From assembly GCA_046760225.1 (NCBI GenBank), contig JBHIDR010000009.1, positions 1 through 22,325 on the forward strand: DNA of 22,325 nucleotides, given 5' to 3'. The translations under genes and the position numbers were made by a program. The notes beneath the pieces are model-generated. The model searched no databases, was not told the origin of the DNA, and saw only the letters and a program-made list of their open reading frames with translations. Numbering within the stretch: position 1 is the first letter of the stretch; each line of letters opens with the position of its first letter. Of the stretch, positions 1 to 18,625 are shown piece after piece. The stretch is from Candidatus Aenigmatarchaeota archaeon (GTDB lineage: Archaea > Aenigmatarchaeota > Aenigmatarchaeia > Aenigmatarchaeales > JACQIB01).

Positions 1-432
1 GTACTTAAGGAAGATGTGGTCAATTACCTTCTTGATGAAAAGTTCTCTCTTGAGATGCCTACTGAAAGCAAGCTTGTTGCTAGAAATGATGATGTAAGGG
101 CATACATAGTCTTCATGGACTATGATGATGGTTGTTATACGTTTTCAACAGAGAAATTCTACAAGAACATGAGAATTCCTGTCAGGTTCTTCAGGCAGCA
201 TGAAGGAAAGGTCCCGCAAGTAAAAATAAAGAAAAAGGCACTGGAATTCCCATGCTTAACGCCCGCACTTCTTTATGTGTCTAAACAAGCTTACAAGGAT
301 GAAATGAGACCAAAGGACAAGAAGGACCTTAAGAGTATTGTTGATAAAGTTGAAAAATCCTACACAGAAGAGGAGAAGGAAAAGTTTTATGAAGAAACAA
401 AGGAACTGATGAACATTATCTTTAGAGACTAA
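1..432 (+). CDS. Hypothetical protein, 5' partial; C-terminus resembles nucleotidyltransferase-fold proteins
   Basis: Frame is open from base 1 (VLKEDVVNY...), so the gene probably starts upstream of the window. 'LTPALLYVSK...RPKDKKDL' resembles the K...R.KD..D helix of nucleotidyltransferase-like families. Confidence 0.45.
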   Translation, partial: VLKEDVVNYLLDEKFSLEMPTESKLVARNDDVRAYIVFMDYDDGCYTFSTEKFYKNMRIPVRFFRQHEGKVPQVKIKKKALEFPCLTPALLYVSKQAYKDEMRPKDKKDLKSIVDKVEKSYTEEEKEKFYEETKELMNIIFRD

Positions 433-1676
433 GTCTTGTCAAGCAGGGTTTCCATGAACTCATTTATTGTTATGAAAGGTCCTGCAGCACAAGTGTGCTC
501 ATCATACTTCTTGACATCATTCGGCTCTATGTCCTTTCCATAAATCATGAAAGGAAATGCGCCTGCTTCGTGCACACCAGAAAAGATAGAGCATATGTGG
601 TCTGAAGTTGCTGCAATTATTGTTGTATTAAGGTCAATATACTCTGTGAGCCTTTTGAAGACCTCCCTGTCTATCTTCTCTATGAAGCCCCTCTTGATAT
701 CGAACTTCTTGTCATGGCCTGCAACATCAGCGCCAAGGATGTGAAGCACGACAAAATCATGTTTTCTTAAGGCCTCGAGTGCTGCAAGTGTCTTTTCCCT
801 TAAGTTGGTATTGAGGTCAGCTGTTGCACCAGTCACATTGGGAACTGTCATTCCAAATGCCTTTGCAATCCCCCTTACAACCGGTGAGGCTGCAATGCAT
901 GCTGCCCTGAGACCGAACTTTTCATGGAAGGGCTTGAACTGCTTCTGCATGCTGGCACCGCGCAGCACAATGAAGTTTGCAGGATTCATCCTGTACCTGT
1001 TGGCAGGATGGTTCTTCATTTTCTTGTGCGTTTCCCTTGTCCATTTGTTCAATGTTTTTGCTGTATGCATAGCAGCATTATCTGGAGTAAGTGGTTTTAT
1101 CTCAGGTGCTTTCATTCCTGGAAAACCCGGATCAGAAGCAGTTATGTGGGGGGATACCAGGTTGTTCCTCATTACCAGAACCGCCCTGTGCGCAACTGAC
1201 TTGTGGAACCTGAAGTTTATTCCCTCAAGGAAGATGTTTGCTATTTCTTCTGATATCTCCTTCAGCCCCTCTCTCTCCCTTCCTGCTCTCCTGTCCAGGA
1301 CAATGAAATCGGGTAAGAGAAGTGTTTTTGGGTTGTAAGGAACAGTGTCCAGTGCAGACGGCACTTCCCTCACTGTTGCAAAATTTGCTCGCATGTAAAC
1401 TTCATCAGGCCTTGTGTCTACTCCAACACCAAGTGCATCCAGATAACCTCTTCCTGGATAGTCCTTTTCATCATAACCAAAGAGCACGAAGTGCGATATC
1501 CCTGAATCTGGACCGAACTGTTCTGTGCCGAGCCTGTTGTCAACAAGACCTGCAAACCCCTTGCTTGTGAAGAGGTCAAGAATAGGCTTGTTGGCTGCCT
1601 GAAGCGTGGTGCGCTTTCCCTCTATGAAGCCGTCAGCAGCGCCATCAAGAATCACCAGAAGTGTTTTCTTTGGCAT
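429..1676 (-). CDS. apgM: 2,3-bisphosphoglycerate-independent phosphoglycerate mutase, archaeal type
   Basis: LLVILDGAAD, TTLQAANKP, DSGISHFVLFGY (catalytic Ser), GRGYLDALG, RANFATV, DRRAGR, DVAGH and TSDH metal motifs. Confidence 0.9.
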   Translation of the reverse strand: MPKKTLLVILDGAADGFIEGKRTTLQAANKPILDLFTSKGFAGLVDNRLGTEQFGPDSGISHFVLFGYDEKDYPGRGYLDALGVGVDTRPDEVYMRANFATVREVPSALDTVPYNPKTLLLPDFIVLDRRAGREREGLKEISEEIANIFLEGINFRFHKSVAHRAVLVMRNNLVSPHITASDPGFPGMKAPEIKPLTPDNAAMHTAKTLNKWTRETHKKMKNHPANRYRMNPANFIVLRGASMQKQFKPFHEKFGLRAACIAASPVVRGIAKAFGMTVPNVTGATADLNTNLREKTLAALEALRKHDFVVLHILGADVAGHDKKFDIKRGFIEKIDREVFKRLTEYIDLNTTIIAATSDHICSIFSGVHEAGAFPFMIYGKDIEPNDVKKYDEHTCAAGPFITINEFMETLLDKT

Positions 1677-1677
1677 T

Positions 1678-3231
1678 TTATCTCTCCAGCATAAATATTC
1701 TCCTGTGGGGTATTTCTGTTGGGAATATTCCTGTCAGCATCCTGTTCTCTATTCTCTTGTCAACTATAACAGGTTCCATTTCTCCCACCATCTTGAGGGC
1801 ATTGTTAAGCTTCCTTGTGTTTTCAGCATAAATCGTGAGGGTTTTCTCGCCCTTCTTCACACTGTCCCCTATCTTCTTGTTGAAAAGAATTCCTGCACCC
1901 TTGTCCTTTGGTGTCCCGGCCTCCCTTGCTATTGCAGCAATTTCAGCGTTCTTCATCCAAAGAACCTTGCCGCTCTTCTTTGAGCGGACTGATACGTTCT
2001 TCTTTCCCAGCTTTATGTCAGAGGCCTTTATTTTCGGATTTCCGCCCTGCTCGCCTATTATCTCCCTCATCTTCCTCAATGCCTTCTTGTTCTTCAGTAT
2101 GTTCATTGCGTGCTTCTTTCCTTCGATCCTGTTCTTTCCTACCAGGTCGAAAAGTGTTCCCACCACTTGTGTTACCTTTTCAATAAGGTCAGGCGGACCC
2201 TTTCCCTCAAGTGTCTGGAGTGCCTCCCTTGCCTCAAGTGCAGGGCCTATTGCCTTGCCTATCGGCTGCTCACCAAATGTTATTGTACATGCGACCTCCA
2301 TTCCCATCCTTCTTCCCAGTTCCCTGAAATCAGAAGCAAGCGAATATGCGCTCCCTGTTGTCTTTATCTTTGCTCCCCTTCCCGTGGGTATGTCTATTAT
2401 CACATACCTTGCATTCACTGCCCTTTTCTTTGACATTATTGAGGGGAGCAAAAGGGGGTCTACACCAAGGGGGTATTCTACCTGTATGAAAACATCATCT
2501 GCAGGCGCAAGCTCAAGCGAACCGCCCCACACAAGGCAGCCGTTTGTCTTCTTCACGACCTTCTTTATCTCGTCAATACTGAGGTCAACAGGAGCAAGCA
2601 CCTCCATCCTGTCAGCTGTTCCTGCGGCCGAGGTTATTGCACGGGAAGAGGTCTTGGGAATAGTAAGCCCGGCTGCAGCTATTATCGGCACACCGATGAG
2701 CGATGTCTTATCACCGGGCACCCCGCCTATTGAATGCTTGTCACATATCACCCTTCCCGGTATTGTGAACTGCTTTCCTGTCTCAACCATTGCGTTCGAA
2801 AGACCTTCTGCCTCGTCCATTGACAGGCCATAAATCTCCAGGGCAGAAACAAAAGCAGAAAGTTCTATCTCCGAGAGATGCCTTTCAACAACATCCTGGA
2901 CAATGGCCCTTATCTTGCTGGCATCAAGCCTTGCACCAGTTATTTTCTGCTTGACAAATTTTACTGACTCGGGCGCCTCAGCAGGGACTATTTCAATCTC
3001 GTCCCCGAGCTTCAGCTTGAAGAACTTGTTAAGCTCGCTGTTGGTAACAGCAACGCCCTGCTCGGCAAACTTCTCAGTGACATCAACTATGGCTATCAGT
3101 GTTTTTTTGTCCTTTGTTATGAAAACCCTGTCAAGCACATGGATTCCCAGGGTCTCAACATCTGCCTTGTTCAGTATTACTACACCTTTTCCTCCTGCCT
3201 CAAAACTTATTGGCTTTGCCCTGAATTTCAT
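1678..3231 (-). CDS. deoA: AMP phosphorylase (archaeal NMP phosphorylase, thymidine phosphorylase family)
   Basis: N-terminal extension plus DKHSIGGVPG, PKTSSRAITSAAGTAD, SIMSKK, GPALEAREAL and KDKGAGI; 517 aa; clustered with RuBisCO and R15P isomerase. Confidence 0.95.
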   Translation of the reverse strand: MKFRAKPISFEAGGKGVVILNKADVETLGIHVLDRVFITKDKKTLIAIVDVTEKFAEQGVAVTNSELNKFFKLKLGDEIEIVPAEAPESVKFVKQKITGARLDASKIRAIVQDVVERHLSEIELSAFVSALEIYGLSMDEAEGLSNAMVETGKQFTIPGRVICDKHSIGGVPGDKTSLIGVPIIAAAGLTIPKTSSRAITSAAGTADRMEVLAPVDLSIDEIKKVVKKTNGCLVWGGSLELAPADDVFIQVEYPLGVDPLLLPSIMSKKRAVNARYVIIDIPTGRGAKIKTTGSAYSLASDFRELGRRMGMEVACTITFGEQPIGKAIGPALEAREALQTLEGKGPPDLIEKVTQVVGTLFDLVGKNRIEGKKHAMNILKNKKALRKMREIIGEQGGNPKIKASDIKLGKKNVSVRSKKSGKVLWMKNAEIAAIAREAGTPKDKGAGILFNKKIGDSVKKGEKTLTIYAENTRKLNNALKMVGEMEPVIVDKRIENRMLTGIFPTEIPHRRIFMLER

Positions 3232-4224
3232 TCAACCAGCCTCTGGCCTGACCTTTTTCCAGTAAATCAAGAACAGTATGACGGGTACTATAACAGTAAT
3301 AGCAAGTGTCCATGTAATCAAATTAAACTGTTCCTGGAGTGGGAGATAGGGTATTCCATAAAATGTGCCAAGGGTGTTTGGCACTGCTATCACAGTGCCT
3401 ATTCCGGTCAGTATGAACATTATCCATGTGAGCTTCCTCACACTGAGGTTTATCCTGTTCGAGATGCTTGCCAGCCTGTTTGAGATCACTGTCTCGTTTA
3501 TTGTGATGGCGTCTGTCAGCGTCTCCCTTTGTGCAGAGACCATCTCCATCTGGTATATGTAGGCATCATGGATATCGTCAAGCATTCTTGCAAGGCTCGG
3601 GTCTATCTTCACTGATGTGAGCCCCTTTCTTATTGAGAATATTATCTTAGATGTGCCCCAGAATCTTCTCCACATCACAAGAAGCGATCTCTTGAGACTT
3701 ACTATGTCCCTTATTATATCCTTTTGCTTTGACCTGCCTATCATCTGCTCCTCTAGTTTTGCTATTCTCCTTTCATTTAGATGGAGAACTTCGAAGTTCT
3801 CTTCCATATCATAATCCATTATCTCATAAAGCAGGTAGCCCAGGCCCTTCAACTTTGGAAGCATGAGGTTCACCTTCTTGAAGATGCTGTTGTAGTGCGG
3901 AAGCATCTTTTCAGTGACTGTTACCAACACGTTCTCCCTTGCAAAAAACAGCACGTTCTCCACGCCTGTACCGCCCCTGATCGGATAATAATCAACAATC
4001 ACAAAGGACAGCGGACTCCAGGAGTACTTCATTGAACGCCTTTCCTTCCTGTATTTCTCAAAAAGGGTTTCCTTCATGCCGAAGTCCTTGCTCAGCCTCT
4101 TTATCTCAGCCTTTGTGGGAGAAGTAACATGAATCCACACGAAACCCTTGCGCGGTCTTGGGTATTTCAGGCCGCTTCCCTGTCCATATCTCTTTGGTGA
4201 AGCTCTGTACAGGAACTTAATCAT
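3232..4224 (-). CDS. CorA-family divalent cation transporter with a non-canonical signature (YGIP instead of YGMN)
   Basis: WIHVTSPT N-terminal motif, long helical funnel region (LDDIHD...), two C-terminal TM helices flanking TFYGIPYLP. Confidence 0.85.
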   Translation of the reverse strand: MIKFLYRASPKRYGQGSGLKYPRPRKGFVWIHVTSPTKAEIKRLSKDFGMKETLFEKYRKERRSMKYSWSPLSFVIVDYYPIRGGTGVENVLFFARENVLVTVTEKMLPHYNSIFKKVNLMLPKLKGLGYLLYEIMDYDMEENFEVLHLNERRIAKLEEQMIGRSKQKDIIRDIVSLKRSLLVMWRRFWGTSKIIFSIRKGLTSVKIDPSLARMLDDIHDAYIYQMEMVSAQRETLTDAITINETVISNRLASISNRINLSVRKLTWIMFILTGIGTVIAVPNTLGTFYGIPYLPLQEQFNLITWTLAITVIVPVILFLIYWKKVRPEAG

Positions 4225-4257
4225 ACATTATATTCTAGAAAAAGTTCTATATAAAAA
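4225..4257 (-). promoter_or_regulatory. Putative archaeal TATA promoter for corA-deoA-apgM (probably leaderless)
   Basis: Minus strand reads TTTTTATATA about 25 nt upstream of the CorA ATG in an AT-rich gap. Confidence 0.5.
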
Positions 4258-4620
4258 TTATAAAACAGGACAGGTCTGCTCTCCTGTTGCCTGGTTGCAG
4301 GCGAGCTTGAGATTTGCACAATCGAACCTATTGCTGTGATATCGGTTGTGAATGTCGCACAGGTTGTCTATGTACCATTCTACCTGCGGAAGACTTATAT
4401 GGGCATTCGAGTCGCAGGTCCAGTTTCCCCAGTACTCGCAGTGCTCTACCATGACCTCTTTTGCAGAAGCGCACTTGTAGCCTGGCCTTGCAACCTCACA
4501 ACCTGCCTTGTCTGTATATACAGGTATTGAGACCAGAATCACGAATATTACCAGTGCTGCAACTGCTATCTTGTCGAACCTGGTCAATTTGGGTAGTTTG
4601 GGTATCTCCATGCCAATCAT
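4258..4620 (-). CDS. Hypothetical membrane-anchored or exported protein with 8 Cys
   Basis: Basic N-terminus, hydrophobic helix IAVAALVIFVILVSIPVY, then 8 cysteines; co-oriented with and close to the RuBisCO gene. Confidence 0.7.
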   Translation of the reverse strand: MIGMEIPKLPKLTRFDKIAVAALVIFVILVSIPVYTDKAGCEVARPGYKCASAKEVMVEHCEYWGNWTCDSNAHISLPQVEWYIDNLCDIHNRYHSNRFDCANLKLACNQATGEQTCPVL

Positions 4621-4635
4621 GTGGATTTCAAGCTT

Positions 4636-5751
4636 TTAAAGGTTTTCAACTGCCCTCCTCATTGCAGCTGCTCCTTTCTTTGTTCCTCCAGGATAACCGT
4701 GAACCCCGCCTCCAGCCTGTATGATTATGTCCTTGCCAACCATCTTCACCAATGGTCTTATAAGGCCTGGGTGAAGACCTCCTGAACATACAGGGAACAC
4801 AGGCCTTGTTGCATCAACTATCCTCAGGAACTCCTCCTTCTTTTCTGCCATTTTTCCTACAACAGTGCCCACATGCAGCTGGTCGACCCCAACGAGTTTT
4901 GCAATTTTGGCTTCGACCACCATGGATATGCCATGTTTAGGGTTCCGCGTGAATGCAGCATGCATTGCCCTGTGGGCATGCATTATCATGCCAAGGTCTT
5001 CGTTTCTCAGTGTCTGGACACCTGCCCAGCCCACTGTCATTATGTCAACCATGATGTATCTTCCGCCATTCTTCTTGACAAAATGTGCTCTGCGCAACAT
5101 TTCCTTTGTCTCGGCTGTTACATTGGGCATGTAGGCCTTTTTCTCTCCTGCCTCCTTTTCTGCCTTCTTCCTCATCTTCAGTGTCTTTCTGACCCTATCT
5201 TCGAACCTGTTGAATGACTGTGATGCCAGGTTCTCATCATCCTTCACAATATCAATGCCGCCTGACCATGCCTCATAAGCCACTTTTGCATGCGCTGAAG
5301 AAGAAAGTCCTAGCTTCGGCTTTATTATTGTGCCTACCAAGGGTCTTTTTCTTATTTTTAGTTTTTTCCTTACGCCTTTCATGCCGTACTTGGGACCAGG
5401 AAAGCTCTTCTCAATGCTTCTTGGAAAATCAATGTCCTCAAGACGCAGGTTATTTACAGCCTTCATTCCGAATATGTTACCTGCAACACTGGATAGAATC
5501 TGCGGCATGTTTCCTGGCTCGAAAAGAACAGAAGGATAAGCAATCTTGAAGTTATTTCCTTTCACCCAGAATATTTTTGCTCCCATCTTCCTTATCCTTG
5601 GCGTCATTGTTGCAACTTCCTTCCATGTGCCAATAGAAGACTCTGCTGCAACAGCTTCCCTTGCCTGCCTGGTTGCAGGCTCTATCCTGAAAGTGCAGAC
5701 AATATCGTTCTTCGGCCTGTAGTTCATTTGAGTGTATCCTTTGTATGCCAT
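4636..5751 (-). CDS. rbcL: Ribulose-1,5-bisphosphate carboxylase, form III-type, short (371 aa)
   Basis: AESSIGT, GNIFGMK, GTIIKPKLGL, GGIDIVKDDE, HAHRAMH, LHVGTVVGK, SGGLHPG, QAGGGVHG. Confidence 0.95.
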   Translation of the reverse strand: MAYKGYTQMNYRPKNDIVCTFRIEPATRQAREAVAAESSIGTWKEVATMTPRIRKMGAKIFWVKGNNFKIAYPSVLFEPGNMPQILSSVAGNIFGMKAVNNLRLEDIDFPRSIEKSFPGPKYGMKGVRKKLKIRKRPLVGTIIKPKLGLSSSAHAKVAYEAWSGGIDIVKDDENLASQSFNRFEDRVRKTLKMRKKAEKEAGEKKAYMPNVTAETKEMLRRAHFVKKNGGRYIMVDIMTVGWAGVQTLRNEDLGMIMHAHRAMHAAFTRNPKHGISMVVEAKIAKLVGVDQLHVGTVVGKMAEKKEEFLRIVDATRPVFPVCSGGLHPGLIRPLVKMVGKDIIIQAGGGVHGYPGGTKKGAAAMRRAVENL

Positions 5752-5752
5752 A

Positions 5753-6118
5753 TTATCTTACCCTTATACTAACATGACTTTTGCCACACTCAGGACACCT
5801 GAATGTAAACGTTCCTTTCCTGTAATCCTTTTTTCTTACCCTCACAATAATCATTTCATCACAATTGCTGCAGTATTCGTTTATTTTCTTGTACTTCTTC
5901 CCAGCATCCTTCATGTGCTTCTTTAGCTCGTTCGAGAGGTTCATTTTCTTCCTGTTCGCAAGCTGTATGCATTCGAACAAGATATCAACTGCCTTGTGCT
6001 TAGCGTTCCTTGTGTTAAGTTCTCTTGCATCTTTCTTGATGAACTTTATTATCTCGTTTGCCTTTGTCTTGTCCCAGTTCATCTTCTTTTCAAACTTTGC
6101 AACATCCTTCTGCATCAC
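5753..6118 (-). CDS. Degenerate MazG-like (all-alpha NTP pyrophosphatase) domain fused to a C-terminal Zn ribbon
   Basis: QKDVAKF...W...KKDAREL...AVDILF...LANRKKMNL follows the MazG/YpjD pattern without most acidic residues. C-terminal CSNC...CPECG. 4-nt overlap with the upstream gene and a 1-nt gap to rbcL. Confidence 0.6.
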   Translation of the reverse strand: MMQKDVAKFEKKMNWDKTKANEIIKFIKKDARELNTRNAKHKAVDILFECIQLANRKKMNLSNELKKHMKDAGKKYKKINEYCSNCDEMIIVRVRKKDYRKGTFTFRCPECGKSHVSIRVR

Positions 6119-6924
6119 AACAGCCTCTTGAGATTTCCTGGTGTCATTATTCCTTTCTCAGTTATTATCCTTGTTATGAATCTCCATGGTGTGATATCAA
6201 AAGCAGGATTCCTTATCTTCACACCTTTCAATGCCTTGTAAACTTCTGATGGTGGCCTTTCCTCAATCTCTATTTTTTTCCTTTTGTCGAGCTTCAAAGT
6301 AGATGCCACAACATAATACGGTTTCTTGTAGAAGTTGGCAGCAAGCGCTATGTTCAGGCTTCCTATCTTGTTCACATTGCCTTCCTTCCTCATTGCATCA
6401 CTTCCAACCATGACAAGGTCCACTTCTGGCATGAAAAAGGAAACAGCTGAATCAACTATCAGGGTGACAGGTATTCCTGCTGCAGCAAGCTCCTTTGCTG
6501 TCCTTATTCCCTGCTGCTTTGGTTCTGTCTCAGTTGCTATTACCTTTATCCTCTTCCCCTGCTTCTTCGCGTGCCTGAGCACAGACACAGCTGTACCTGA
6601 ATGGCAATGGGTCATTATTGTCTGCCCGCTCTTTATGAACCTGCTTGCCTCTGCTATCTTTTTCGGAGAGGTCTTAAGCTTTGTGAGAAGAAAGTTTATT
6701 TTTTTCTTGCTCTTGTCCTTCTTGAGAATCTCAATGCAGTTGTGGAGAACAACTGCTGTTGGCCTTGCAGCTTCCAGCTCCTTCATTGCCCTGTTGAATT
6801 TGCTTCCGAAGCCATGCTTCCTTGAATACTTCCTCAGGAACCTAAGGCTCTCTGTTGCTATCTCCTTTGCTCCCTGTATCTTCAGGCTCTTTATCTTTTC
6901 AACCATTTCCTTGAGTTCAGGCAT
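6115..6924 (-). CDS. Ribose-1,5-bisphosphate isomerase (eIF-2B alpha/beta/delta family)
   Basis: IQGA, ARPT, MTHCHS (catalytic Cys), VGSDA (catalytic Asp), NKIGS, IEERP, RNPAFDITP; same operon as RuBisCO. Confidence 0.9.
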   Translation of the reverse strand: MPELKEMVEKIKSLKIQGAKEIATESLRFLRKYSRKHGFGSKFNRAMKELEAARPTAVVLHNCIEILKKDKSKKKINFLLTKLKTSPKKIAEASRFIKSGQTIMTHCHSGTAVSVLRHAKKQGKRIKVIATETEPKQQGIRTAKELAAAGIPVTLIVDSAVSFFMPEVDLVMVGSDAMRKEGNVNKIGSLNIALAANFYKKPYYVVASTLKLDKRKKIEIEERPPSEVYKALKGVKIRNPAFDITPWRFITRIITEKGIMTPGNLKRLL

Positions 6925-6955
6925 AAATTAATCTTATAGTAGGTTTAAAATAAAG
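6925..6955 (-). promoter_or_regulatory. Putative TATA promoter for the isomerase-RuBisCO operon
   Basis: Minus-strand TTTTAAA (6950-6944) lies 20-26 nt upstream of the ATG at 6924; AT-rich gap with no SD sequence. Confidence 0.45.
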
Positions 6956-7828
6956 TTATTGTTGCCTCAAGAACCACTCAACTTCACTGAAGTACTCAGA
7001 TGATACCTCATTGTCATCCTTGAACCCCTCAACAAATGGTTCCCTGCATGTCCTTTCTATGTAGCATTCTGAGCATTTCTGTTCCTCAAGTGAGCTTCCT
7101 ACATCAGCACAGACAGGGCACAGACTGTATTTATAGCTGACAAATCCCTTTTCCACATACACCTTCATCTTTACATCAAGACCATCCAGGACAATTTTTC
7201 TTTTCTCAGGTTTTAATGCTCTCAGTTCTTCTTTTATATAATCTTTCAGCCTTGTTCCAGAACCAATTTTTTTCTTGAATACCCTCAATGATTTCAGCAA
7301 GTTATTTGTTTCATAACTCTTCAGGGCAAGCTGCTCTTCCTGGTTAAGTTCCTTTGGATTGAAGGTGTAAGGACCGAATCCGACCTTTTTTAGAAATAAT
7401 CCCATTTCAAATTTTGGATCATGTTTCAGACTAAAATCTCTAGTTTCAGGATAGATGTAGCTTCTAAGATAGATAACATCATATTCTTCGGGTTTCTTTC
7501 CTCTTTCAACCAGTTCCTGGTGATGCTTACTTGCCTCCTTTTCAAGTGCTGTCACAAGGCAGTTTGCAAGGCCCTTCCCCCTGTATTCAGGGAGAATGGA
7601 AAAGTTCCTGAACTTCAAATCAAATTTTCCCTTCTTTACTATTGTGTAGCCTATTTTCCTTCTGTTCCCTTCAAGATAAATTATTTCCTCTCCTGGCCAG
7701 AGCCTATTAGACAATTCGTAAATCTCTTTGTAATCCCTACCAAAAACATCAATATAGTGCTCTCTTTTCAACTCTTCCAACTCTTCAGAAAGGCCATATC
7801 TTTTTTCTTTTACCAGTCTTATTTCCAA
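6956..7828 (-). CDS. GNAT-family N-acetyltransferase with a C-terminal Cys-cluster domain
   Basis: Motif A FSILPEYRGKGLA; C-terminal CPVC...CSEC....C. Probable TTG start at 7828 (MEIRLV) after GAGGG; the ORF track uses GTG at 7846. Confidence 0.75.
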   Translation of the reverse strand: MEIRLVKEKRYGLSEELEELKREHYIDVFGRDYKEIYELSNRLWPGEEIIYLEGNRRKIGYTIVKKGKFDLKFRNFSILPEYRGKGLANCLVTALEKEASKHHQELVERGKKPEEYDVIYLRSYIYPETRDFSLKHDPKFEMGLFLKKVGFGPYTFNPKELNQEEQLALKSYETNNLLKSLRVFKKKIGSGTRLKDYIKEELRALKPEKRKIVLDGLDVKMKVYVEKGFVSYKYSLCPVCADVGSSLEEQKCSECYIERTCREPFVEGFKDDNEVSSEYFSEVEWFLRQQ

Positions 7829-8351
7829 GATAATCCCTCGCAACACGATTATATTTTTCTATCAGTTCATATGCTTCCTTAAGATTTTTTCCAAAAGCAA
7901 TAGAGCCATGTTGTTTTAGAATTATGTACCTTGTATCAGGGTTATTTTCCATACATTTTAGTATTTCTTCTGCAAGCTCTAGTGTGCCACATGGGTATGT
8001 TTTCTCTGTCTTAGGAACAACATACTTCTTTGCATATTCCAGAACAGCATTGTCATGAACATGTATTATTGCCTTGTAAGGATATTTTGAATATATCATG
8101 TAGTGTGCCAGTGCTTCTGTAGACGGCTTGACCTTACCTATTGCATACACTACTCTTTCTTCAAAATCAACATCTTCTATTCTGACCAAGTCATCCTTGG
8201 TCAGGCTACCTTTGTGAACCCCTCTTCCTGTCACTATCATCTTGCTGTTGTTTATGCTTATGTTGCCGAATGTTGACTCTTCATACTCTGGGAAAACACC
8301 TAATTCGTACAGCTTCTTTCCTACCTCTATAATGTCACTCGGTGTATCCAT
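7785..8351 (-). CDS. Class II aldolase/adducin-family metalloenzyme
   Basis: FGNIS, VTGRG, PSTEALAH, AIIHVH and LKQHG Zn-binding motifs. ATG at 8351 lies inside the end of coaBC. Confidence 0.85.
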   Translation of the reverse strand: MDTPSDIIEVGKKLYELGVFPEYEESTFGNISINNSKMIVTGRGVHKGSLTKDDLVRIEDVDFEERVVYAIGKVKPSTEALAHYMIYSKYPYKAIIHVHDNAVLEYAKKYVVPKTEKTYPCGTLELAEEILKCMENNPDTRYIILKQHGSIAFGKNLKEAYELIEKYNRVARDYLGNKTGKRKKIWPF

Positions 8352-9564
8352 TGTCAATCAGCTCTGTCCTGAATCTTTTCACACCGAGCCGAGTATCAAG
8401 AATACTGTATATCTCCTTTACCATCTCGTCCTTTGTCTCTGTCTCGTACACACCTTTCTCTGGCGTAACTATGTATGCTGGATGGATATCTCCCCTAATT
8501 GAGTCAAGGTCATTTGCAACAATCAGGTTAAGGTGCGCTTTCCTCATCTTCTCATACGCTATGTCTACTATCTCCTCCCTTGTCTTCTTGGTCTCGAGCT
8601 TGAACCCGACTGCAAAAACACTTCTGTAAGCTTTCTTTACTTCGTCTATTATCTTCGGTGTTTTCTTGAACCTTACCTGCAGATTATCAACAGTGGACCT
8701 TATTTTTTTGTCTGTGTATTCTGCTGGCTCATAGTCCAGGACAGCTGCTGTGAATATTGCAGCATCAGCTTCCTTCATCTCTATCATGCATACATCAAGC
8801 ATCTGCTGCGGTGTTTCAACATCCACTCTCCTTATGTAATGCGGCACCTTTTCTTTTCCTGGACCGTATATCAAGGTGACATCTGCTCCTTTCAGATAAC
8901 CTTCTTTTGCGATCTTTACTCCTAGCTTTCCACCTGACCTGTTTGATATGTACCTGACATTATCTATTGGGCCTCTTGTTGGGCCTGCTGTAATCACTAC
9001 CTTCTTTCCTTTGAGTCTTGAGTCAGAGAGTTCACGCGTAACATAGCTTGTTATGTATTCTGTGTCTGCTATCTTTGCCTTGCCCTCGTCCATCCTGGGC
9101 TCTATGAACCTCACGCCATATTCTTCTAGCTTTTTTACGTTCTCATTGTAAGCAGGATTGTTGTACATGGTCTCATGCATTGTTGGCGCCATTACTATCT
9201 TGGTCTTTCTTCCAAGAGAGGATGACAGGAGTGATGATACTGCATCATCTGCTATTCCATTGGCTGCCTTCCCTATTGTGTTCAATGTTGCTGGTGCAAC
9301 AAGGATCAGGTCCTTTTTTCTTGTGTGTTCAGCATAGCCACTAAGGTGTGTGATTACATCTCTTTCAGTTGCCCATTCAAGTGCCTTGTAACCAACAAAT
9401 TCCAAAGAAGCTTCTGTCATATAAGCTTCGACATCAGCACCGTATCTCCTCAATGCCCTTGCTGTGATAGGTGACTTTATTGATGCTATGCCACCTGTTA
9501 CGCAGAGTGCAACCTCTTTTCCATCAAGGTAATCCCCGATTTTTTCAACCTTTGTGTCTTTCAT
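8335..9564 (-). CDS. coaBC: Bifunctional phosphopantothenoylcysteine decarboxylase / phosphopantothenate-cysteine ligase
   Basis: VTGGIA, VAPATLNTIGKAANGIADD, APTMHETMY, ITAGPT..PID.VRYISNRSGGKLG, AAVLDY, VGFKLET, IVAND; SD GAGGAG upstream. Confidence 0.95.
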   Translation of the reverse strand: MKDTKVEKIGDYLDGKEVALCVTGGIASIKSPITARALRRYGADVEAYMTEASLEFVGYKALEWATERDVITHLSGYAEHTRKKDLILVAPATLNTIGKAANGIADDAVSSLLSSSLGRKTKIVMAPTMHETMYNNPAYNENVKKLEEYGVRFIEPRMDEGKAKIADTEYITSYVTRELSDSRLKGKKVVITAGPTRGPIDNVRYISNRSGGKLGVKIAKEGYLKGADVTLIYGPGKEKVPHYIRRVDVETPQQMLDVCMIEMKEADAAIFTAAVLDYEPAEYTDKKIRSTVDNLQVRFKKTPKIIDEVKKAYRSVFAVGFKLETKKTREEIVDIAYEKMRKAHLNLIVANDLDSIRGDIHPAYIVTPEKGVYETETKDEMVKEIYSILDTRLGVKRFRTELIDNGYTE

Positions 9565-9568
9565 ATCG

Positions 9569-11281
9569 TCATCTCCTCAATAATTTTTTTGTCCTTTCCT
9601 GCAGGACAGGACTATTCCTAAAAACCTTTATGCCGTAAGGTGGGAAAGGATTGCCTATACAAAAAACTGAATCATGAGGATATGCTAAAATAACAGGAAC
9701 CAGCAGCAGGTCCTCCTCTCCTTCAACCTTAAGCTTGAACCTGTGTTTTTTGCAGCGCTTTTGAAAATCCCTTATGCTGAATATTTTGTCATATGCATCC
9801 CTGCTTACTATGGACTTCTTGCTCTGTGCTTCAGCACCCATTACATTATATTCATCCAGAAACTTTGCAATCTCATCTGCATTCTCCCTTCTTGTCTTTC
9901 CATCATATATGAAAAGGTCTGGCTTTGCACCAGCTCTCAACAGGTAATATGCAGAAACATCACCTACTATGACATCAGGACTGTATCTTTTCAGCACAGC
10001 TTCTGCTGTTTCTTCATATCCATCCTTGCTTATGATTTCATCATACGTTTCCCTGAAGAAAGGAATGTCCTCCTCCCTCAGCCTATATACTTCCTTTTCT
10101 CTAAGCATTCTTCCATCGCAATCTATTTCACCTTTCCTTATCCTGGTTGATGATATCCTTCTTGAATCGTCTGCGAGCACATCTTCAACTAGAATCTTTT
10201 CTATTTCAGGGAAGCCCAATTCCTTTCTTTTTCTGTTTATTTTTTCAAGGTTCTTTTGCGTTTCTTTTGTAACAACCATTGCTTGCATGTCCTTTCTCTC
10301 CAGTGTCTCACCATATATGTCGAAAATCATGTTTATCTCATAGTTATCAAGACCGTGTTCATTGGTGAGACAGTCCATCAACTGGAAACATCGTATCCTG
10401 TAAGGCGGGGGCCTGGGGCTCTTGTGCTTTATCATCTCGTCATCTGTCATTCCCAGAAAAACATATTCTCCATTCTCGAACGCCTCTTTCAAAAGTTCCT
10501 TATGGCCCCTATGAAGAGGTCCGAATGTGCCGCCCATTGCAACTGTGTCATATCTTTTCATTTCAAGCTCAAGGCCGTGCCTTGCTGTGTAAAGCGGCAC
10601 TCCTGCATCAATCTGCCTCTTGAACTCAGCAGGCCTAAGCTCTGCAAAGTGCGTGAGCACAGTCTTCTTTGGACATGCATACTCCAACAAGTATGAAACA
10701 TCAGATGGCGTCATGTGGCCATTCTTTTTATATCTTGATCCTTCACTCAATGTAGCATCAACAACAAGTATGTCTGCATCTGCTGAGAATTCCTTAAGTT
10801 CTCTGAAAAGACCGGTGTCTCCTGTATAGACAAGCTCTCTTTTTCCTGTTGAGAACCTGTATGCATAGTTCTTTACCATGTGCTTTGTCTCAAGGTAGTC
10901 AACTTCTATGTTTCCAACCTTCCTTGGTATTTCCTCTATGAACCCTATCTCAAAACCAAGGTCCTCGAAATTATTAGGAGCAACATGGTTTGAAATCTTT
11001 CCAACAGGTGTCTCAGGAGTGTATATCGGAAGGTACCTCTCTCTTCCAGCATCATACATTGCAGCCAGGAGAGGATAGAGTGCCATCATATGGTCCTGAT
11101 GGATATGTGAAAGGAACACAGCATCTATGTCATAATCTGGCCTGAGGTCCCTTATTATGTTCTGAGCACCTGCATCAATAAGGACCTTATCTCCATTAGC
11201 GTATAGGGTGAAGCAGCTATAATCGTCATCATAGGGCACAAACCCTGAGCTTCCATGAAAATATGTTTTAATTTCAGACAT
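9569..11281 (-). CDS. Triple fusion: RNase Z-like metallo-beta-lactamase hydrolase + phosphopantetheine adenylyltransferase (archaeal CoaD) + DUF359 GTP-dependent dephospho-CoA kinase
   Basis: aa 1-240: LIDAG, SHIHQDH, TKH, YTGDT, GHMT, LTHF. aa 241-391: GGTFGPLHRGH, VVTKET, RISSTRIRKGEID. aa 392-570: VGDVS, YDGKTRR, VEGEEDLL. Confidence 0.85.
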   Translation of the reverse strand: MSEIKTYFHGSSGFVPYDDDYSCFTLYANGDKVLIDAGAQNIIRDLRPDYDIDAVFLSHIHQDHMMALYPLLAAMYDAGRERYLPIYTPETPVGKISNHVAPNNFEDLGFEIGFIEEIPRKVGNIEVDYLETKHMVKNYAYRFSTGKRELVYTGDTGLFRELKEFSADADILVVDATLSEGSRYKKNGHMTPSDVSYLLEYACPKKTVLTHFAELRPAEFKRQIDAGVPLYTARHGLELEMKRYDTVAMGGTFGPLHRGHKELLKEAFENGEYVFLGMTDDEMIKHKSPRPPPYRIRCFQLMDCLTNEHGLDNYEINMIFDIYGETLERKDMQAMVVTKETQKNLEKINRKRKELGFPEIEKILVEDVLADDSRRISSTRIRKGEIDCDGRMLREKEVYRLREEDIPFFRETYDEIISKDGYEETAEAVLKRYSPDVIVGDVSAYYLLRAGAKPDLFIYDGKTRRENADEIAKFLDEYNVMGAEAQSKKSIVSRDAYDKIFSIRDFQKRCKKHRFKLKVEGEEDLLLVPVILAYPHDSVFCIGNPFPPYGIKVFRNSPVLQERTKKLLRR

Positions 11282-12080
11282 GTGCTTTCACCTCATTGAA
11301 CAGGTGTGAGTAGTCCTCGTACTCCTCTTCGCAAGGTCTGCCAGGACAGTAAAGGTAAGTAGACTTCTCAAATTCCTTGTTAATTGCAACTATGCTGGAT
11401 GACCTTGTATAGAACTCATCGCTGTGATGGTTGCATAGCGTGAATTCCTTTGGCACAACATCGTCATAGTGATCCCTTGCAAGCTCTTTCAGCTTCTCTA
11501 TTGCATCGTCAATCCTCCTTGGCTTGAAGTCTTTCAGAAGCATCTCTGCTCTGTCTTTCCTGAGCATGGAATCAACCCTGTCATGCTTCTGGATGAATGT
11601 TTCAGGACATGTGGTAAGATAATCATTCACGAAAATATGTATTCCTTCATCAATTTTCCTTGTGCCCACCTTAGAATCATAATAAGTCATGTAGGCATTG
11701 TCTTTGTCTGCAACAACAAAGTTCACCTTGTGATAACCGCCTTCTTCCAGTTCTTCTTCAAAAAAATCCTTTGCATCTTCTGCATTGCCATATGTTCTTG
11801 CTACTTCCAAGCACAGTCTTCCTATTGATTTTGTCAGCTTATCAGCAGGCTTGCTGGAACATCTCTCAGTAAGAGCAACAAACATGCCTTTTCTGTTGAA
11901 AGCCAGCCATGTACCTTTGGTCCCGCTGTCCAGTGCGGCATAGGTTTTGAAGGAATGGAAAGGATCTTCATCAAAATAAACAGGTGGCTGCTCTTCCTTG
12001 TATGCGTACTCATCCCTGTTCTCCATTGCTATGACTAGGAATTCGTCCATTACCTTGTAAAGCATTATGAGTGTGCACAC
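11274..12080 (-). CDS. NRDE/TANGO2-family Ntn-hydrolase-fold protein
   Basis: GTG-TGC start gives M-C-T-L-I with SD GGTGA at 12090-12086. Literal NRDE motif, GTWLAFNRKG, N(F)VVAD, LCNH, YTRSSSIV, GRPCE. Confidence 0.88.
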   Translation of the reverse strand: MCTLIMLYKVMDEFLVIAMENRDEYAYKEEQPPVYFDEDPFHSFKTYAALDSGTKGTWLAFNRKGMFVALTERCSSKPADKLTKSIGRLCLEVARTYGNAEDAKDFFEEELEEGGYHKVNFVVADKDNAYMTYYDSKVGTRKIDEGIHIFVNDYLTTCPETFIQKHDRVDSMLRKDRAEMLLKDFKPRRIDDAIEKLKELARDHYDDVVPKEFTLCNHHSDEFYTRSSSIVAINKEFEKSTYLYCPGRPCEEEYEDYSHLFNEVKAHV

Positions 12081-12092
12081 CTTTCTCACCAA

Positions 12093-12157
12093 TAGAAATA
12101 TGGGTTTAGGGTTCTTTATAGATAATCTTTAAATATTTAAAGAACTATAAAGTTATT
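12093..12157. promoter_or_regulatory. Divergent promoter region containing an extended palindrome
   Basis: Perfect 18-bp palindrome TCTTTAAATATTTAAAGA (12126-12143) flanked by inverted CTTTATAG (12114-12121) and CTATAAAG (12145-12152); TATA-like boxes on both strands. Confidence 0.6.
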
Positions 12158-13093
12158 ATGGAAGTACAAAAAAGAAAGCTGCAGGAGATAGCAGGCTCAT
12201 TACTCATAACAATACCCAAGTCATGGACAAGACAGTATAATTTGGAAAAGGGAAATAGTGTGGATGTCCTTCTTCTTGATGATGGCACCCTGAAGATAAT
12301 GCCTTCGTTCAAAGAAGAGCACAAGGAAATCAAGAGAGCTGTAATAAGGCATGACAGATATGTTTTGAGGAAGTTTTTCAGAGAATATCTGCTTGGTACG
12401 CATGTCATTGAGATAATACTTACAAAGCCATTGAGCAAGGCTGAAAGGGAGAAGATAACCAAGTTCCTGAAGCGGTTGATAAATGTCGAAATAATCGAAG
12501 AGGGCTCCAAGAGGATAGTTATTGAAAACCTGGGCACGCAGAAGATGCCGATAAGGCAGGCATTCAGCAGGATGGTCTTCCTTACAAGCTCCATGTTCGA
12601 GGACATACTGAACTATATGGACGAGCCTGATGTGCTAAAGACGATGAACGAAAGGGATGAGGTGGTTGACAAGTTCTATTTCATGGTTGTGGCGAACACA
12701 AGGACATTCATATCCAAGGGATATTTCATATTGCCGGAACGCGAACTCACGCTCCTGGAGTGCCTTGACTACAGGCTTGCTTCTGAAAAAGTAGAGAGGG
12801 TTGGTGATATACTGAAAAAAATGGTACCATTGCTAAAGAAAGTTAAAAACAAGGAAGTAATGAAGTTCGGGGAACTGGTCTTTGAAAAATACAAGAAAGC
12901 TGTCAAGAGCTTCCTGAAAAAAGACCTTGATACTGCTGTCAGCCTAATAGATGATGCAAAGGAAATAAATGCCAAAGCAAAGAGGCTGAAAAAGAAGTTT
13001 GAAAGGAAAAAGGATGTTGGTGCAATAGAGATTGTTGATTACTTCTTGCAAATATTTGAGCACGGCAAGGATGTTGGAGACCTGGTGAGATAA
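12158..13093 (+). CDS. Archaeal phosphate-uptake regulator (AbrB/SpoVT DNA-binding domain + PhoU domains)
   Basis: RKLQEIAGSLLITIPKSW AbrB domain; YLLG; ERDEVVDKFY; ERVGD PhoU repeats. Confidence 0.85.
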   Translation: MEVQKRKLQEIAGSLLITIPKSWTRQYNLEKGNSVDVLLLDDGTLKIMPSFKEEHKEIKRAVIRHDRYVLRKFFREYLLGTHVIEIILTKPLSKAEREKITKFLKRLINVEIIEEGSKRIVIENLGTQKMPIRQAFSRMVFLTSSMFEDILNYMDEPDVLKTMNERDEVVDKFYFMVVANTRTFISKGYFILPERELTLLECLDYRLASEKVERVGDILKKMVPLLKKVKNKEVMKFGELVFEKYKKAVKSFLKKDLDTAVSLIDDAKEINAKAKRLKKKFERKKDVGAIEIVDYFLQIFEHGKDVGDLVR

Positions 13094-16166: not shown

Positions 16167-17069
16167 ATGATGAAAAAGGTTAAATATATACATTTGGACG
16201 ATTTGGACGGGCTCTCTGTTCTTTTTAATAACAATTTTAGGTTTGAGTTATTTTCAAAAATTGCTATACAATTTAAAAATCAAAAGGATATAGCTAAGGT
16301 TTTTGGAGTTAGACAATGGACAATAAGCAGATGGAAAACTGGAAAGTCCTTCGTACCGATAAGTAAATTAAATTTGATTAGAGAGCATTCCCAAACGAAT
16401 TCTTTAGAAAAAGGGGTTAACAAAATAGGGGGAGGAAAGGGATCAGAGCCATTGAATATTAGACTCCCATTAGAGTTTAGTGAAAATCTATCATATTTAT
16501 GTGGTCTTATAATAACAGATGGTCACTTAAATAAAAATTTGAGATGGGTACAATTCACTAATAAGAGCAAATACCTACAAAAAATCTTTTTAAAGAAAAT
16601 CAAGGACGTTTTCAAATATAACAAATATTATCAGAATGAGAAAGATAGAATTCAAATTTATATCAAGAGCAAGAACATTACTATAATTTTTCATTGTATA
16701 GACATACCTAAAGGGAGAAAAGTTGGTATAATTACAGTACCGGATATTGTTAAAAAATCTCCTTCATCTGTGAAAGCAGCTTTTCTTAGAGGCTGTTTCG
16801 ATGGCGATGGGTCAGTATCTTATTCTAAGAAGCGGGGATTAAGAATAATAAATCTTGCGAACAGAAGCAAGAAATTTCTAGAAGAAATCCAAGTTCTTTT
16901 GAAGGAATTTGGAATAGAAAGCTCTCTTACGACAAATAAGTTTATGCAAAGCTATCTTAACATAACTAATAAATCGAACTTGAATAAATTCCATAATTCC
17001 GTAGGATTTCATCACCCAGAAAGAAAAGAAAAACTTTCAACTTTATTGCTTTCTTATCAAAGACCGTAG
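16167..17069 (+). CDS. Free-standing HTH + double-motif LAGLIDADG homing endonuclease
   Basis: QKDIAKVFGVRQWTISRWKTG (Cro-type HTH), YLCGLIITDG and FLRGCFDGDGS motifs. AT-rich (17/60 G+C counted in line 16201); opposite strand to both neighbours. Confidence 0.85.
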   Translation: MMKKVKYIHLDDLDGLSVLFNNNFRFELFSKIAIQFKNQKDIAKVFGVRQWTISRWKTGKSFVPISKLNLIREHSQTNSLEKGVNKIGGGKGSEPLNIRLPLEFSENLSYLCGLIITDGHLNKNLRWVQFTNKSKYLQKIFLKKIKDVFKYNKYYQNEKDRIQIYIKSKNITIIFHCIDIPKGRKVGIITVPDIVKKSPSSVKAAFLRGCFDGDGSVSYSKKRGLRIINLANRSKKFLEEIQVLLKEFGIESSLTTNKFMQSYLNITNKSNLNKFHNSVGFHHPERKEKLSTLLLSYQRP

Positions 17070-18625
17070 CATTTTTTATATAGAGGTTCGTTCTCTAATT
17101 TTTTCGCGTCCCTAACATACAAGTCCTCTTTTAGAGACTTGTTGTTTTGTTTCTCCCACTCTTCTATGGATAAAGAGAACTTCATTTGAATCTTATCTCT
17201 ATACCATTCTGGTATCACATTAAATGCGCAAAATGGTACTATCTTTCCGTCAGGCTGTGCATAATGAATACAACAACGTTTTACGCGTTCAATATCGTAA
17301 TTAAATTTGTCCTGGAAATGCATCATTCCAAGGAACATGGTCTTGTGATGGAATATCCTTAATGCGCCATAGTCCCTGTTTTTGAGCACATTGAAAAGTA
17401 TGTTTGCAAGGTTCAGGCCTTTTGGTTGTTTCTCCTTATCAATGAACTTGTTCAGCCTGAAAATCATCTCAGCACCGACAAGGAGCCTGCTCTTGCCATC
17501 CCTCACTTCTTTTGCTTTTTCATCCAGATATTCTGTCAGGCCTTCCACATCAACAAAGCGCGTAATTGGTATGATTTTGTCATTGTCCTTGAAAAGGTAT
17601 GTTGCCATGCCGCACACAGGATGGGCTGTCAATTCATACTTCTGTCTATTTGTTATTGCCTCAATAAAGTGTGTGAACGCTGTCACAGTGGGGACTGGAT
17701 ACCAGTCCTCTTTTACAACCGTCCCGCTTGTCTGCTCTTCTATATTCTTTATTACGTCAGGTATTGTAATCCTCATCTTCTCCCTATCTGCCTTTGATAT
17801 CCTTCCAACCAGGGAGACAGGTTGATAATTCACTCCCCTGACAATGTCAATGTTCTTGAGACCGAACTTTAATATGTCACCAACCTCATGGTCGTTTATT
17901 CCCCTCATAACAACGGGAACAAGCACAATACCCATTCCAGTGTCCCTGCAGTTCTTGAATATGCGCGGTACCTCCCAGTGGTTCTTTGGGTTTGTCTTTG
18001 CTGTAACACCGTCAAAGCTCAGATACAGGTGGTTGACTCCTGCTGACCTGATTATCTTGCCGAACTCAGGATCATGGGAAAGCCTTATTCCGTTTGTGTT
18101 CAGCTGGACATGGTCAAAGCCCTCTTCCTTTGCCATCTTGACTATGTCTACTATGTCCTCCCTCAGCATGGGCTCTCCTCCTGTGAGCTGTAATGCATTG
18201 GTTGAAACAGGCTTTTCCTGCCTGAGGTTCCTGAGCATCAGCCTTATCTGGTTCAAGCTAGGCTCATAAACATAGCCCATTGCCTTTGCATAGAAGAAGC
18301 AATAGAAGCAGGCAAGGTCGCACCTGTTGGTTATTACAATGTTTGCTAGGGCTGTGTGGGACTTATGTTGGTTGCAGAGACCGCAGCTCATCGGGCAGCC
18401 CTCAAACTTGGTGTTCGGGTTTTTTATTCCCTTGCCATCGTGCTGCCATTTCATTGCCTTCAGGTACATTCCATAGTCGCCATAGTAAAGGTCTGTGAAC
18501 TCGCCATGTTCCTCGCACCTCTTCCTTATCCATACCTTTCCTTCCCTTTCGAAAATATCAGCTGGAAGAATTTTAAGACATTCCGGGCAAAGTGTTTTGG
18601 TTTGTCTGATTATGTTCTCTGTCAT
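17057..18625 (-). CDS. tes: Radical SAM protein of the MJ0619 / tetraether lipid synthase (Tes, GDGT-MAS) family
   Basis: N-terminal TLCPEC...KRCEEHG, CPMSCGLCNQH, TNRCDLACFYCF, LTGGEP, HPVCGMATY, RCCIHY...IVPFCAFN. Confidence 0.8.
   Translation of the reverse strand: MTENIIRQTKTLCPECLKILPADIFEREGKVWIRKRCEEHGEFTDLYYGDYGMYLKAMKWQHDGKGIKNPNTKFEGCPMSCGLCNQHKSHTALANIVITNRCDLACFYCFFYAKAMGYVYEPSLNQIRLMLRNLRQEKPVSTNALQLTGGEPMLREDIVDIVKMAKEEGFDHVQLNTNGIRLSHDPEFGKIIRSAGVNHLYLSFDGVTAKTNPKNHWEVPRIFKNCRDTGMGIVLVPVVMRGINDHEVGDILKFGLKNIDIVRGVNYQPVSLVGRISKADREKMRITIPDVIKNIEEQTSGTVVKEDWYPVPTVTAFTHFIEAITNRQKYELTAHPVCGMATYLFKDNDKIIPITRFVDVEGLTEYLDEKAKEVRDGKSRLLVGAEMIFRLNKFIDKEKQPKGLNLANILFNVLKNRDYGALRIFHHKTMFLGMMHFQDKFNYDIERVKRCCIHYAQPDGKIVPFCAFNVIPEWYRDKIQMKFSLSIEEWEKQNNKSLKEDLYVRDAKKLENEPLYKKCYGL

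Follow-up and report, generated by a model that had tools for sequence, protein, structure and literature searches.

Five genes stand in a row on the minus strand, from position 12080 down to 6956, of a contig from a Candidatus Aenigmatarchaeota archaeon (JBHIDR010000009.1, assembly GCA_046760225.1). The stretch analysed, referred to below as the window, comprises the first 22,325 nucleotides (nt) of this contig. In order, the genes encode an NRDE/TANGO2-family protein, a fusion of a metallo-beta-lactamase (MBL) fold with a phosphopantetheine adenylyltransferase (PPAT) and a dephospho-coenzyme A kinase (DPCK), a bifunctional CoaBC, a class II aldolase/adducin-family protein and a GNAT-domain protein. 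All five lie at the coordinates given in an earlier reading of the sequence (the original prediction), in which they were taken for an undescribed coenzyme A (CoA) salvage or remodelling operon; that reading is partly supported by the present analysis. The gene content of the window is archaeal and includes CDP-archaeol synthase, aEF-1beta, FEN1, type III RuBisCO, AMP phosphorylase and the archaeal PPAT and DPCK. Deficiency of TANGO2 causes a lethal metabolic disease in humans; what the protein does biochemically is disputed, with heme chaperone, acyl-CoA binder and hydrolase among the roles proposed in published reports. Prokaryotic gene context is a classic route to settling such disputes. 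The features that bear on a link between this family and CoA synthesis are the following:

11274..12080, minus strand: NRDE/TANGO2-family protein, 268 amino acids (aa); PF05742 at E 1.7e-13, 51.8 bits against a cut-off of 22.6, residues 6-240
9569-11281, minus strand: MBL-PPAT-DPCK fusion, 570 aa; Lactamase_B_2 at 33-212, cytidylyltransferase-like at 249-383, DUF359 at 445-569
10562..11281, minus strand: MBL-fold domain of the RNase Z/YhfI/PhnP phosphodiesterase type, residues 1-240 of the fusion; PF12706 at E 2.4e-19
10094..10561, minus strand: archaeal-type PPAT domain, residues ~241-396; NF001985 at 147 bits against a cut-off of 104 (242-396), PF01467 at E 3.8e-13
9569..9997, minus strand: DUF359/arCOG04076-type (GTP-dependent) DPCK domain with the stop codon, residues ~429-570; PF04019 at 56.5 bits against 25
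8335..9564, minus strand: bifunctional CoaBC (phosphopantothenate-cysteine ligase and phosphopantothenoylcysteine decarboxylase); TIGR00521 at E 3.3e-97, 326 bits against 219.7, with PF04127 and PF02441

The predicted CoaBC, PPAT and DPCK together cover the steps from 4'-phosphopantothenate to CoA, which form the late half of the archaeal pathway. This content had been claimed in the original prediction and is borne out by TIGR00521, NF001985 and PF04019, all above their curated cut-offs. Against the Thermococcales equivalog NF041125 the DPCK domain reaches 39 bits of a required 300, a low score that is expected for a distant lineage and is no proof of lost function. The nearest PPAT relatives and the CoaBC neighbours that carry names are mostly Thermoplasmatota. 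The joining of PPAT to DUF359 is a known arrangement, seen in uncultured archaea: such fusions are abundant among the matches of the fusion search described below, and it was they that led to the published identification of the archaeal DPCK, arCOG04076 (Shimosaka et al. 2019, PMC6650551). Pantoate kinase, phosphopantothenate synthetase and PanK have no Pfam match among the 28 open reading frames (ORFs) of the window that were scanned, as had been predicted.

The gene at the head of the array encodes a genuine but divergent member of the NRDE/TANGO2 family, with 31% identity to its closest homologue. Its GTG start at 12080, ahead of which lies a GGTGAG Shine-Dalgarno-like motif, gives the N-terminal Met-Cys that is typical of the family; an alternative TTG start at 12092 would leave a five-residue leader. 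Eighteen of the 23 homologue matches, the window protein among them, were aligned (P0013, P0015, P0017, P0019 and P0022 were left out); C2, N21, R22, D23 and E24 are invariant in all 18 sequences, and the profile built from the alignment matches human TANGO2 chains at E 4e-27. The structure model (predicted local distance difference test, pLDDT, 84.4; predicted template-modelling score, pTM, 0.85) has human TANGO2 as its top PDB folds (9bwa and 8sv7, E about 2e-13, template-modelling score, TM, about 0.7), followed by CV2077, acyl-CoA:isopenicillin N acyltransferase, which uses acyl-CoA, and bile salt hydrolases. The fold of an N-terminal nucleophile (Ntn) hydrolase and the N-terminal Cys that had been attributed to the protein are upheld by the model, its fold matches and the Met-Cys start, and the window NRDE protein is accordingly modelled as an alpha-beta-beta-alpha Ntn-hydrolase fold with Cys2.

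The MBL domain at the N-terminus of the fusion keeps the metal-binding motifs HxHxDH, Asp and His intact, and its model has a pLDDT of 88.4. Its sequence matches in the PDB, the ElaC homologue 1zkp and YhfI 6kns, are also its nearest folds (TM about 0.8); further folds include RNase Z, the PhnP-family diphosphatase 6b9v, PhnP, MBL proteins bound to adenosine or guanosine monophosphate (AMP or GMP) and Apyc1. RNase Z itself was considered and rejected as an identity for the domain, which is RNase Z-like but not RNase Z (NF000801, 94 bits against 252; TIGR02651, 91 against 293), and the domain falls below the equivalog cut-offs for RNase Z, PhnP and cyclic-nucleotide phosphodiesterases. Because the motifs are intact, the nearest folds are nucleotide phosphodiesterases or a diphosphatase and no equivalog cut-off is reached, the domain may fairly be labelled a putative phosphodiesterase or diphosphatase with a nucleotide as its substrate, and the phosphodiesterase type named in the original prediction agrees with the motifs and folds.

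A HMMER pass with the fusion over 1.84 billion representatives returned 5207 matches, the best 150 of which were considered; 15 of these 150, namely all 11 with two matched stretches and four others, were scanned with Pfam. MBL and PPAT occur together in three of the 15 scanned proteins: P0025, in the order MBL-PPAT, which is 43% identical to the query fusion, and P0047 and P0171, in the order PPAT-MBL, with MBL identities to the window domain of 31% and 26%. Since both domain orders occur, at least two MBL/PPAT fusion events must have taken place, which is good evidence that the MBL subfamily of the window works with PPAT. The His of a T-K-H motif, kept in the window MBL domain, is absent from its closest MBL relatives (P0025, P0043, P0162 and P0173), and metal binding may be altered in part of the subfamily. 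Several archaeal PPATs, from Thermoplasmatota metagenome-assembled genomes (MAGs), are fused to inosine/xanthosine triphosphatase PF01931 (P0031, P0033 and P0036-P0039), another nucleotide hydrolase carried on PPAT.

A second fusion concerns NRDE/TANGO2 and CoaBC. A cluster of 653-aa proteins in the ESM Atlas, with 54 members that are all archaeal and most commonly from Candidatus Bathyarchaeota, has PF02441 (Flavoprotein) in 100%, PF04127 (DFP) in 100% and PF05742 (TANGO2) in 96% of its members. The cluster is the top structural row both for the window NRDE protein (TM by query 0.86, 242 residues aligned) and for the window CoaBC (TM by query 0.92, 394 residues aligned), and jointly the two alignments cover ~636 residues out of 653. 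Another archaeal group therefore has CoaBC and TANGO2 domains in one chain, or at least has them adjacent and called as one gene. The support that the cluster lends to the arrangement in the window is largely independent, because the named relatives of the window genes are mostly Thermoplasmatota and the gene order differs.

The layout of the array is set by the junctions between its genes and by the AT-rich stretches at both ends. The features of this wider setting are:

12081..12157: divergent intergenic region, 77 nt between the NRDE gene (minus) and the PhoU/AbrB-like gene (plus), with AT-rich TATA-like boxes
7785..8357, minus strand: class II aldolase/adducin-family protein; PF00596 at E 5.6e-24; start probably ATG 8351
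6956..7846, minus strand: GNAT-domain protein; PF13673 at 26.5 bits against 23.6, PF00583 at 21.6 against 20.7 (marginal); alternative start TTG 7780
6925..6955, minus strand: spacer of 31 nt, AT-rich, with a TATA-like box ~24 nt before the e2b2 start codon
6924 down to 429, minus strand: seven further genes of the run, in order an e2b2-family isomerase, a zinc-ribbon protein, RuBisCO III, a small protein, CorA, AMP phosphorylase and apgM

The NRDE gene and the triple fusion overlap by 8 nt (ATGTCTGA), and a 4-nt gap separates the fusion from CoaBC. The overlap of CoaBC with the aldolase gene is 17 or 23 nt long, according to which start codon is taken, and the aldolase and GNAT genes either overlap by 62 nt (GTG 7846) or are separated by 4 nt (TTG 7780). 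Shine-Dalgarno-like motifs lie upstream of the NRDE, fusion and CoaBC starts. The 8-nt overlap suggests translational coupling of NRDE and fusion, and the NRDE/fusion and fusion/CoaBC junctions would fit co-translation. The description of five genes on one strand with overlaps or a 4-nt gap is thus confirmed by ORF coordinates, domain matches and junctions. The 77-nt gap at 12081-12157 is the widest around the cluster and is the likely promoter of the array. The divergent gene on its other side (12158-13093, plus strand), which has this promoter region in common with the NRDE gene, encodes a protein with AbrB/MazE-like and PhoU domains that could be a regulator of the array. An Rfam scan of the window returned a tRNA-Arg only; near the cluster it found neither a riboswitch nor any further RNA.

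The co-directional minus-strand run comprises twelve genes from 12080 down to 429, seven beyond the five. A single transcription unit of five genes would be based on their co-direction and overlaps, the AT-rich divergent region upstream and the AT-rich spacer after the GNAT gene. TATA-like boxes lie ~24-28 nt ahead of the e2b2 and CorA starts, the latter at 4248-4256; the two might split the run into three units, in which case 6956 would be a real boundary. The spacer at 6925-6955 may be an internal promoter, and the five-gene unit may accordingly have its 3' boundary there. The TATA-like pattern, which is a resemblance to consensus only, has eight matches in the window against 3.4 expected, a count reached in 3 of 100 shuffles. 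Scans for sigma-70 promoters (27 against 22.2 expected) and terminators (18 against 11.7) are uninformative for an archaeon.

The original prediction had counted the aldolase and GNAT genes as parts of a CoA operon, and here it is not supported: nothing ties either of them to CoA, and no fusion or recurrence of either with CoA genes was found. The best NCBIfam models of the aldolase, all under their cut-offs, are PRK08660, MtnB, FucA_Meth and ribulose-1-phosphate aldolase; its nearest PDB sequence is the putative aldolase 2irp (E 1.7e-10), which gives no assignment. Because of this likeness to MtnB, fuculose-phosphate and ribulose-1-phosphate aldolases, and because it stands one gene from the e2b2 isomerase, the aldolase more plausibly belongs with the sugar-phosphate genes downstream. 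The GNAT protein has no sequence match in the PDB, and its C-terminal tail is Cys-rich and zinc-ribbon-like. In so compact a genome, both genes are probably passengers. The downstream genes (429-6924, minus strand) include a complete set for AMP and pentose-bisphosphate salvage, with AMP phosphorylase (TIGR03327, 600 bits), e2b2 isomerase, RuBisCO III (TIGR03326, 503 bits against 497) and apgM, among which CorA, the zinc-ribbon protein and the small protein are interspersed. In principle, this set could take up AMP that is set free from CoA-type nucleotides.

Beyond the array and its AbrB/MazE-PhoU neighbour, the plus strand carries a free-standing LAGLIDADG homing-endonuclease-like gene at 16167-17069 (PF14528, E 4e-25), which lies in the stretch of lowest GC content of the window (0.307 against about 0.43) and may be a mobile insertion. 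On the minus strand, 17057-18625 encodes a radical SAM protein whose N-terminal zinc ribbon is of the HMPTM type (PF23545, E 5e-20); a neighbouring gene at 18669-19508 encodes a 279-aa protein that has no Pfam match.

With the domain identities, gene order and overlaps of the window set beside the TANGO2-CoaBC and MBL-PPAT fusions of other organisms, we consider it quite possible, if short of probable, that the array joins the late CoA pathway to two accessory hydrolase-type modules, the MBL domain on PPAT and the NRDE protein, which would let scavenged or spent CoA be rebuilt. Each module is tied by fusion to one CoA enzyme, MBL to PPAT and TANGO2 to CoaBC, and the simplest reading is that each would supply the substrate of its partner. 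This is the salvage idea of the original prediction, made more specific. The MBL domain would cut a CoA-related nucleotide at a phosphodiester or diphosphate bond to give 4'-phosphopantetheine, the substrate of PPAT. By means of Cys2, the NRDE protein would cleave a pantetheine-containing compound at an acyl or amide bond, with a free thiol as the outcome of thioester cleavage, or 4'-phosphopantothenate, the substrate of CoaBC, as that of amide cleavage. CoaBC and PPAT-DPCK would then rebuild the scavenged or spent CoA species. That (phospho)pantetheine or (phospho)pantothenate would be set free by hydrolysis is purely what we infer.

A bolder form of the same idea, which we regard as improbable, is a cycle that takes damaged CoA apart and rebuilds it with a new cysteamine end. 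The MBL domain would cut the diphosphate of CoA whose thiol end had been irreversibly oxidised or alkylated, and NRDE Cys2 would cut the pantothenoyl-cysteamine amide, so that the bad cysteamine would be discarded and 4'-phosphopantothenate released; CoaBC would then install a fresh cysteine-derived thiol, and PPAT-DPCK would restore CoA. Such a cycle would explain why TANGO2 is fused specifically to CoaBC and MBL to PPAT, and why the pathway from 4'-phosphopantothenate is kept in the window with no visible source of that compound. If true, it would by extension make TANGO2 an enzyme of CoA quality control, which fits the reported rescue of TANGO2 deficiency by vitamin B5 (bioRxiv 10.1101/2022.11.04.514597).

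Several observations weigh against a role of the NRDE protein in rebuilding CoA, and the distribution of NRDE genes is foremost among them. Other NRDE loci were sampled at 13 sites, 11 bacterial and two haloarchaeal. Nine came from a locus scan with a six-sequence NRDE alignment and a single peptide pattern (one Haladaptatus and eight bacterial loci), a small and motif-biased sample, and four were inspected among ten NRDE matches on plasmids or chromids, the other six being further Ralstonia and Acinetobacter records. A tblastn search with the window CoaBC and triple fusion against the fetched flanks of the 13 loci recovered NRDE in every one and found no CoaBC, MBL, PPAT or DUF359. Pfam found no CoaBC, PPAT, DPCK or PanK in 88 neighbour ORFs of the nine scanned loci, which were picked by a filter on GC content at third codon positions (GC3) and showed only scattered CoA-using enzymes several kb off; the NRDE frame was not recovered at L008, and at L007 it was merged with a phosphoglycerate mutase. 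The annotations of three plasmid or chromid loci (Haladaptatus salinisoli, Ralstonia and Acinetobacter) contain no CoA genes, and the fourth, a Nocardia record without annotation, was covered by tblastn alone. A word-index search for longer NRDE fusions returned one only (PF05742 with PF06224), a negative that is uninformative because the CoaBC-TANGO2 cluster was itself missed by that search. The cluster is known as domain percentages and a structural match, and merged gene calls are possible in it. The triple fusion was seen in the window only, in the HMMER pass over the 1.84 billion representatives (best 150 of 5207 matches considered). The linkage of NRDE to CoA genes is thus not general across prokaryotes. 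The gene-context support for a TANGO2-CoA connection that had been claimed for the locus comes, tentatively, from the 54-member archaeal cluster outside this genome; as a neighbourhood of NRDE genes with coaBC or coaD across prokaryotes it is not borne out, at 0 of 13 sampled loci.

Two of the sampled loci have settings of their own. On the Haladaptatus salinisoli plasmid (L010, 1-12729) the NRDE gene has an oligopeptide ABC transporter on one side and a glutathione S-transferase on the other, with MaoC dehydratase, DUF1028 and gamma-glutamyltransferase nearby, a thiol and peptide-amide context and not one of CoA biosynthesis. In a proteobacterial MAG (L007, 758-3293) a cofactor-independent phosphoglycerate mutase directly follows the NRDE gene, or is merged with it by the ORF call.

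To our knowledge, no NRDE protein has a known enzymatic activity, and the window protein departs from its family at positions that may matter for ligand binding. It is the sole deviant at four columns in which the 17 other sequences are identical: K28 (R in the others), K55 (G), E72 (N, the Asn of L-T-N in homologues) and I86 (R). Read off the alignment of the family profile with human TANGO2, the R28 and R86 columns of the homologues map to R32 and R88 of human TANGO2, which with K56 coordinate phosphate in the crystal structure (PMC12359130). With these counterparts replaced by K28 and I86, the ligand may differ from that of canonical TANGO2; the pocket is, as predicted from the alignment, remodelled, and caution is needed in extrapolating from the window protein to human TANGO2. 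The genome is also compact: gaps are at most 33 nt in 16 of the 18 same-strand neighbour pairs of the window, coding density is ~0.97, and overlaps occur between unrelated pairs such as DNA methylase/FEN1 and CarS/PHP, with PCMT/ATP-cone also tightly packed. Overlap is therefore weak evidence of common function here.

That packing, which extends to clearly unrelated genes, leads to the reading in which the array consists of chance neighbours: CoaBC and PPAT-DPCK alone would be a unit, and the NRDE protein would have an unrelated task, in heme trafficking or in some other amidase role. It would agree with the absence of CoA genes from the 13 other NRDE loci, whose neighbours are heterogeneous, as on the Haladaptatus salinisoli plasmid. 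It would agree also with the conservation in the window protein, as Y116, of the Tyr implicated in heme binding of a bacterial homologue. This homologue, HtpA (Shewanella SO0126), was assigned a heme-trafficking role from cytochrome c phenotypes (PMC10470608). The 54-protein archaeal CoaBC-TANGO2 cluster is, however, not easily explained by chance alongside the adjacency found here, and the 8-nt overlap of the NRDE and fusion genes is compatible with translational coupling; we consider chance rather unlikely, though to be taken seriously. Somewhat less likely still is that the NRDE protein senses or unloads CoA or acyl-CoA as a binder, thioesterase or acyltransferase and tunes CoaBC and pathway flux to the state of free CoA and acyl-CoA, with the MBL domain acting on a nucleotide by-product. 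Purified human TANGO2 is reported to bind acyl-CoA in an NRDE-dependent manner (PMC11867700), the crystal-structure report proposes Cys2-dependent acyl-CoA hydrolysis and docks CoA (PMC12359130), acyl-CoA:isopenicillin N acyltransferase is a close structural neighbour, and fusion to CoaBC would suit an allosteric or channelling partner. Two features of the window protein tell against such a partner: the phosphate-coordinating Arg counterparts are replaced, and the protein retains every invariant residue around Cys2 and the NRDE motif, a pattern suggestive of catalysis and not just of binding.

A modified CoA or CoA-derived cofactor, made by all five genes and tailored by the aldolase and GNAT proteins, was the alternative offered in the original prediction and is very improbable. 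Its evidence is the co-direction and overlap with CoaBC and the promoter-like spacer after the GNAT gene, and no other. It is opposed by the tight packing throughout, by the sugar-phosphate aldolase or MtnB likeness of the aldolase and its position near the e2b2 isomerase, RuBisCO III and AMP phosphorylase, by the lack of any fusion or recurrence found that ties the aldolase or GNAT gene to CoA genes, and by the marginal GNAT match.

In the literature searched, which leaves most subscription journals outside and is thus a provisional basis, no mention was found of archaeal TANGO2-CoaBC adjacency or fusion or of MBL-PPAT fusions; searches on PPAT with metallo-beta-lactamase in archaea returned nothing relevant, and on CoA metabolite repair nothing was found. 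The word undescribed in the original prediction is therefore apt in part. The PPAT-DPCK fusion (PMC6650551) and the connection of TANGO2 with acyl-CoA, as binding and as a hydrolase hypothesis (PMC11867700, PMC12359130), are already in print; the archaeal genomic link between TANGO2 and CoA is, provisionally, apparently new. If this link holds, pantetheine-containing compounds at the CoaBC step become candidate substrates of TANGO2, and small archaeal proteins become candidates in which to test them. The recurrence of MBL-PPAT fusions suggests that archaeal CoA metabolism has an accessory activity so far unrecognised.

Several known systems have features in common with the window. As in the archaeal CoA pathway of Shimosaka et al., an archaeal PPAT is fused to a DUF359 kinase and CoaBC would supply 4'-phosphopantetheine; the window differs in its N-terminal MBL domain and in the NRDE gene that heads the cluster. 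Human TANGO2 (8sv7, 9bwa) belongs to the same Pfam family as the window NRDE protein and has the same Met-Cys start, NRDE motif and alpha-beta-beta-alpha fold, whereas identity is ~15% by structural alignment, K28 and I86 stand for R32 and R88, and the setting is an archaeal cytosol beside CoA genes. HtpA is likewise of this family and Y116 is kept; unlike in the window, no CoA gene context is described for HtpA in the available part of its report, and the window ORFs scanned include no heme or cytochrome-maturation genes. The YhfI/ElaC/PhnP/Apyc1 group of MBL proteins (6kns, 1zkp, 3g1p, 6b9v, 7u2r) matches the window MBL domain at TM 0.7-0.82 with metal motifs in common, but the window domain is fused to PPAT-DPCK and lies under the equivalog cut-offs. 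Eukaryotes re-use CoA through Nudix or ENPP diphosphatases and pantetheinase: the diphosphate is cut to give 4'-phosphopantetheine, the amide is cut and CoA is rebuilt. The logic proposed for the window would be the same, with unrelated enzyme families, its candidates being the MBL domain and the Ntn-fold protein. The 653-aa archaeal cluster has CoaBC and NRDE/TANGO2 both, as does the window, but in one polypeptide, whereas the window has them as separate genes with the MBL-PPAT-DPCK gene between.

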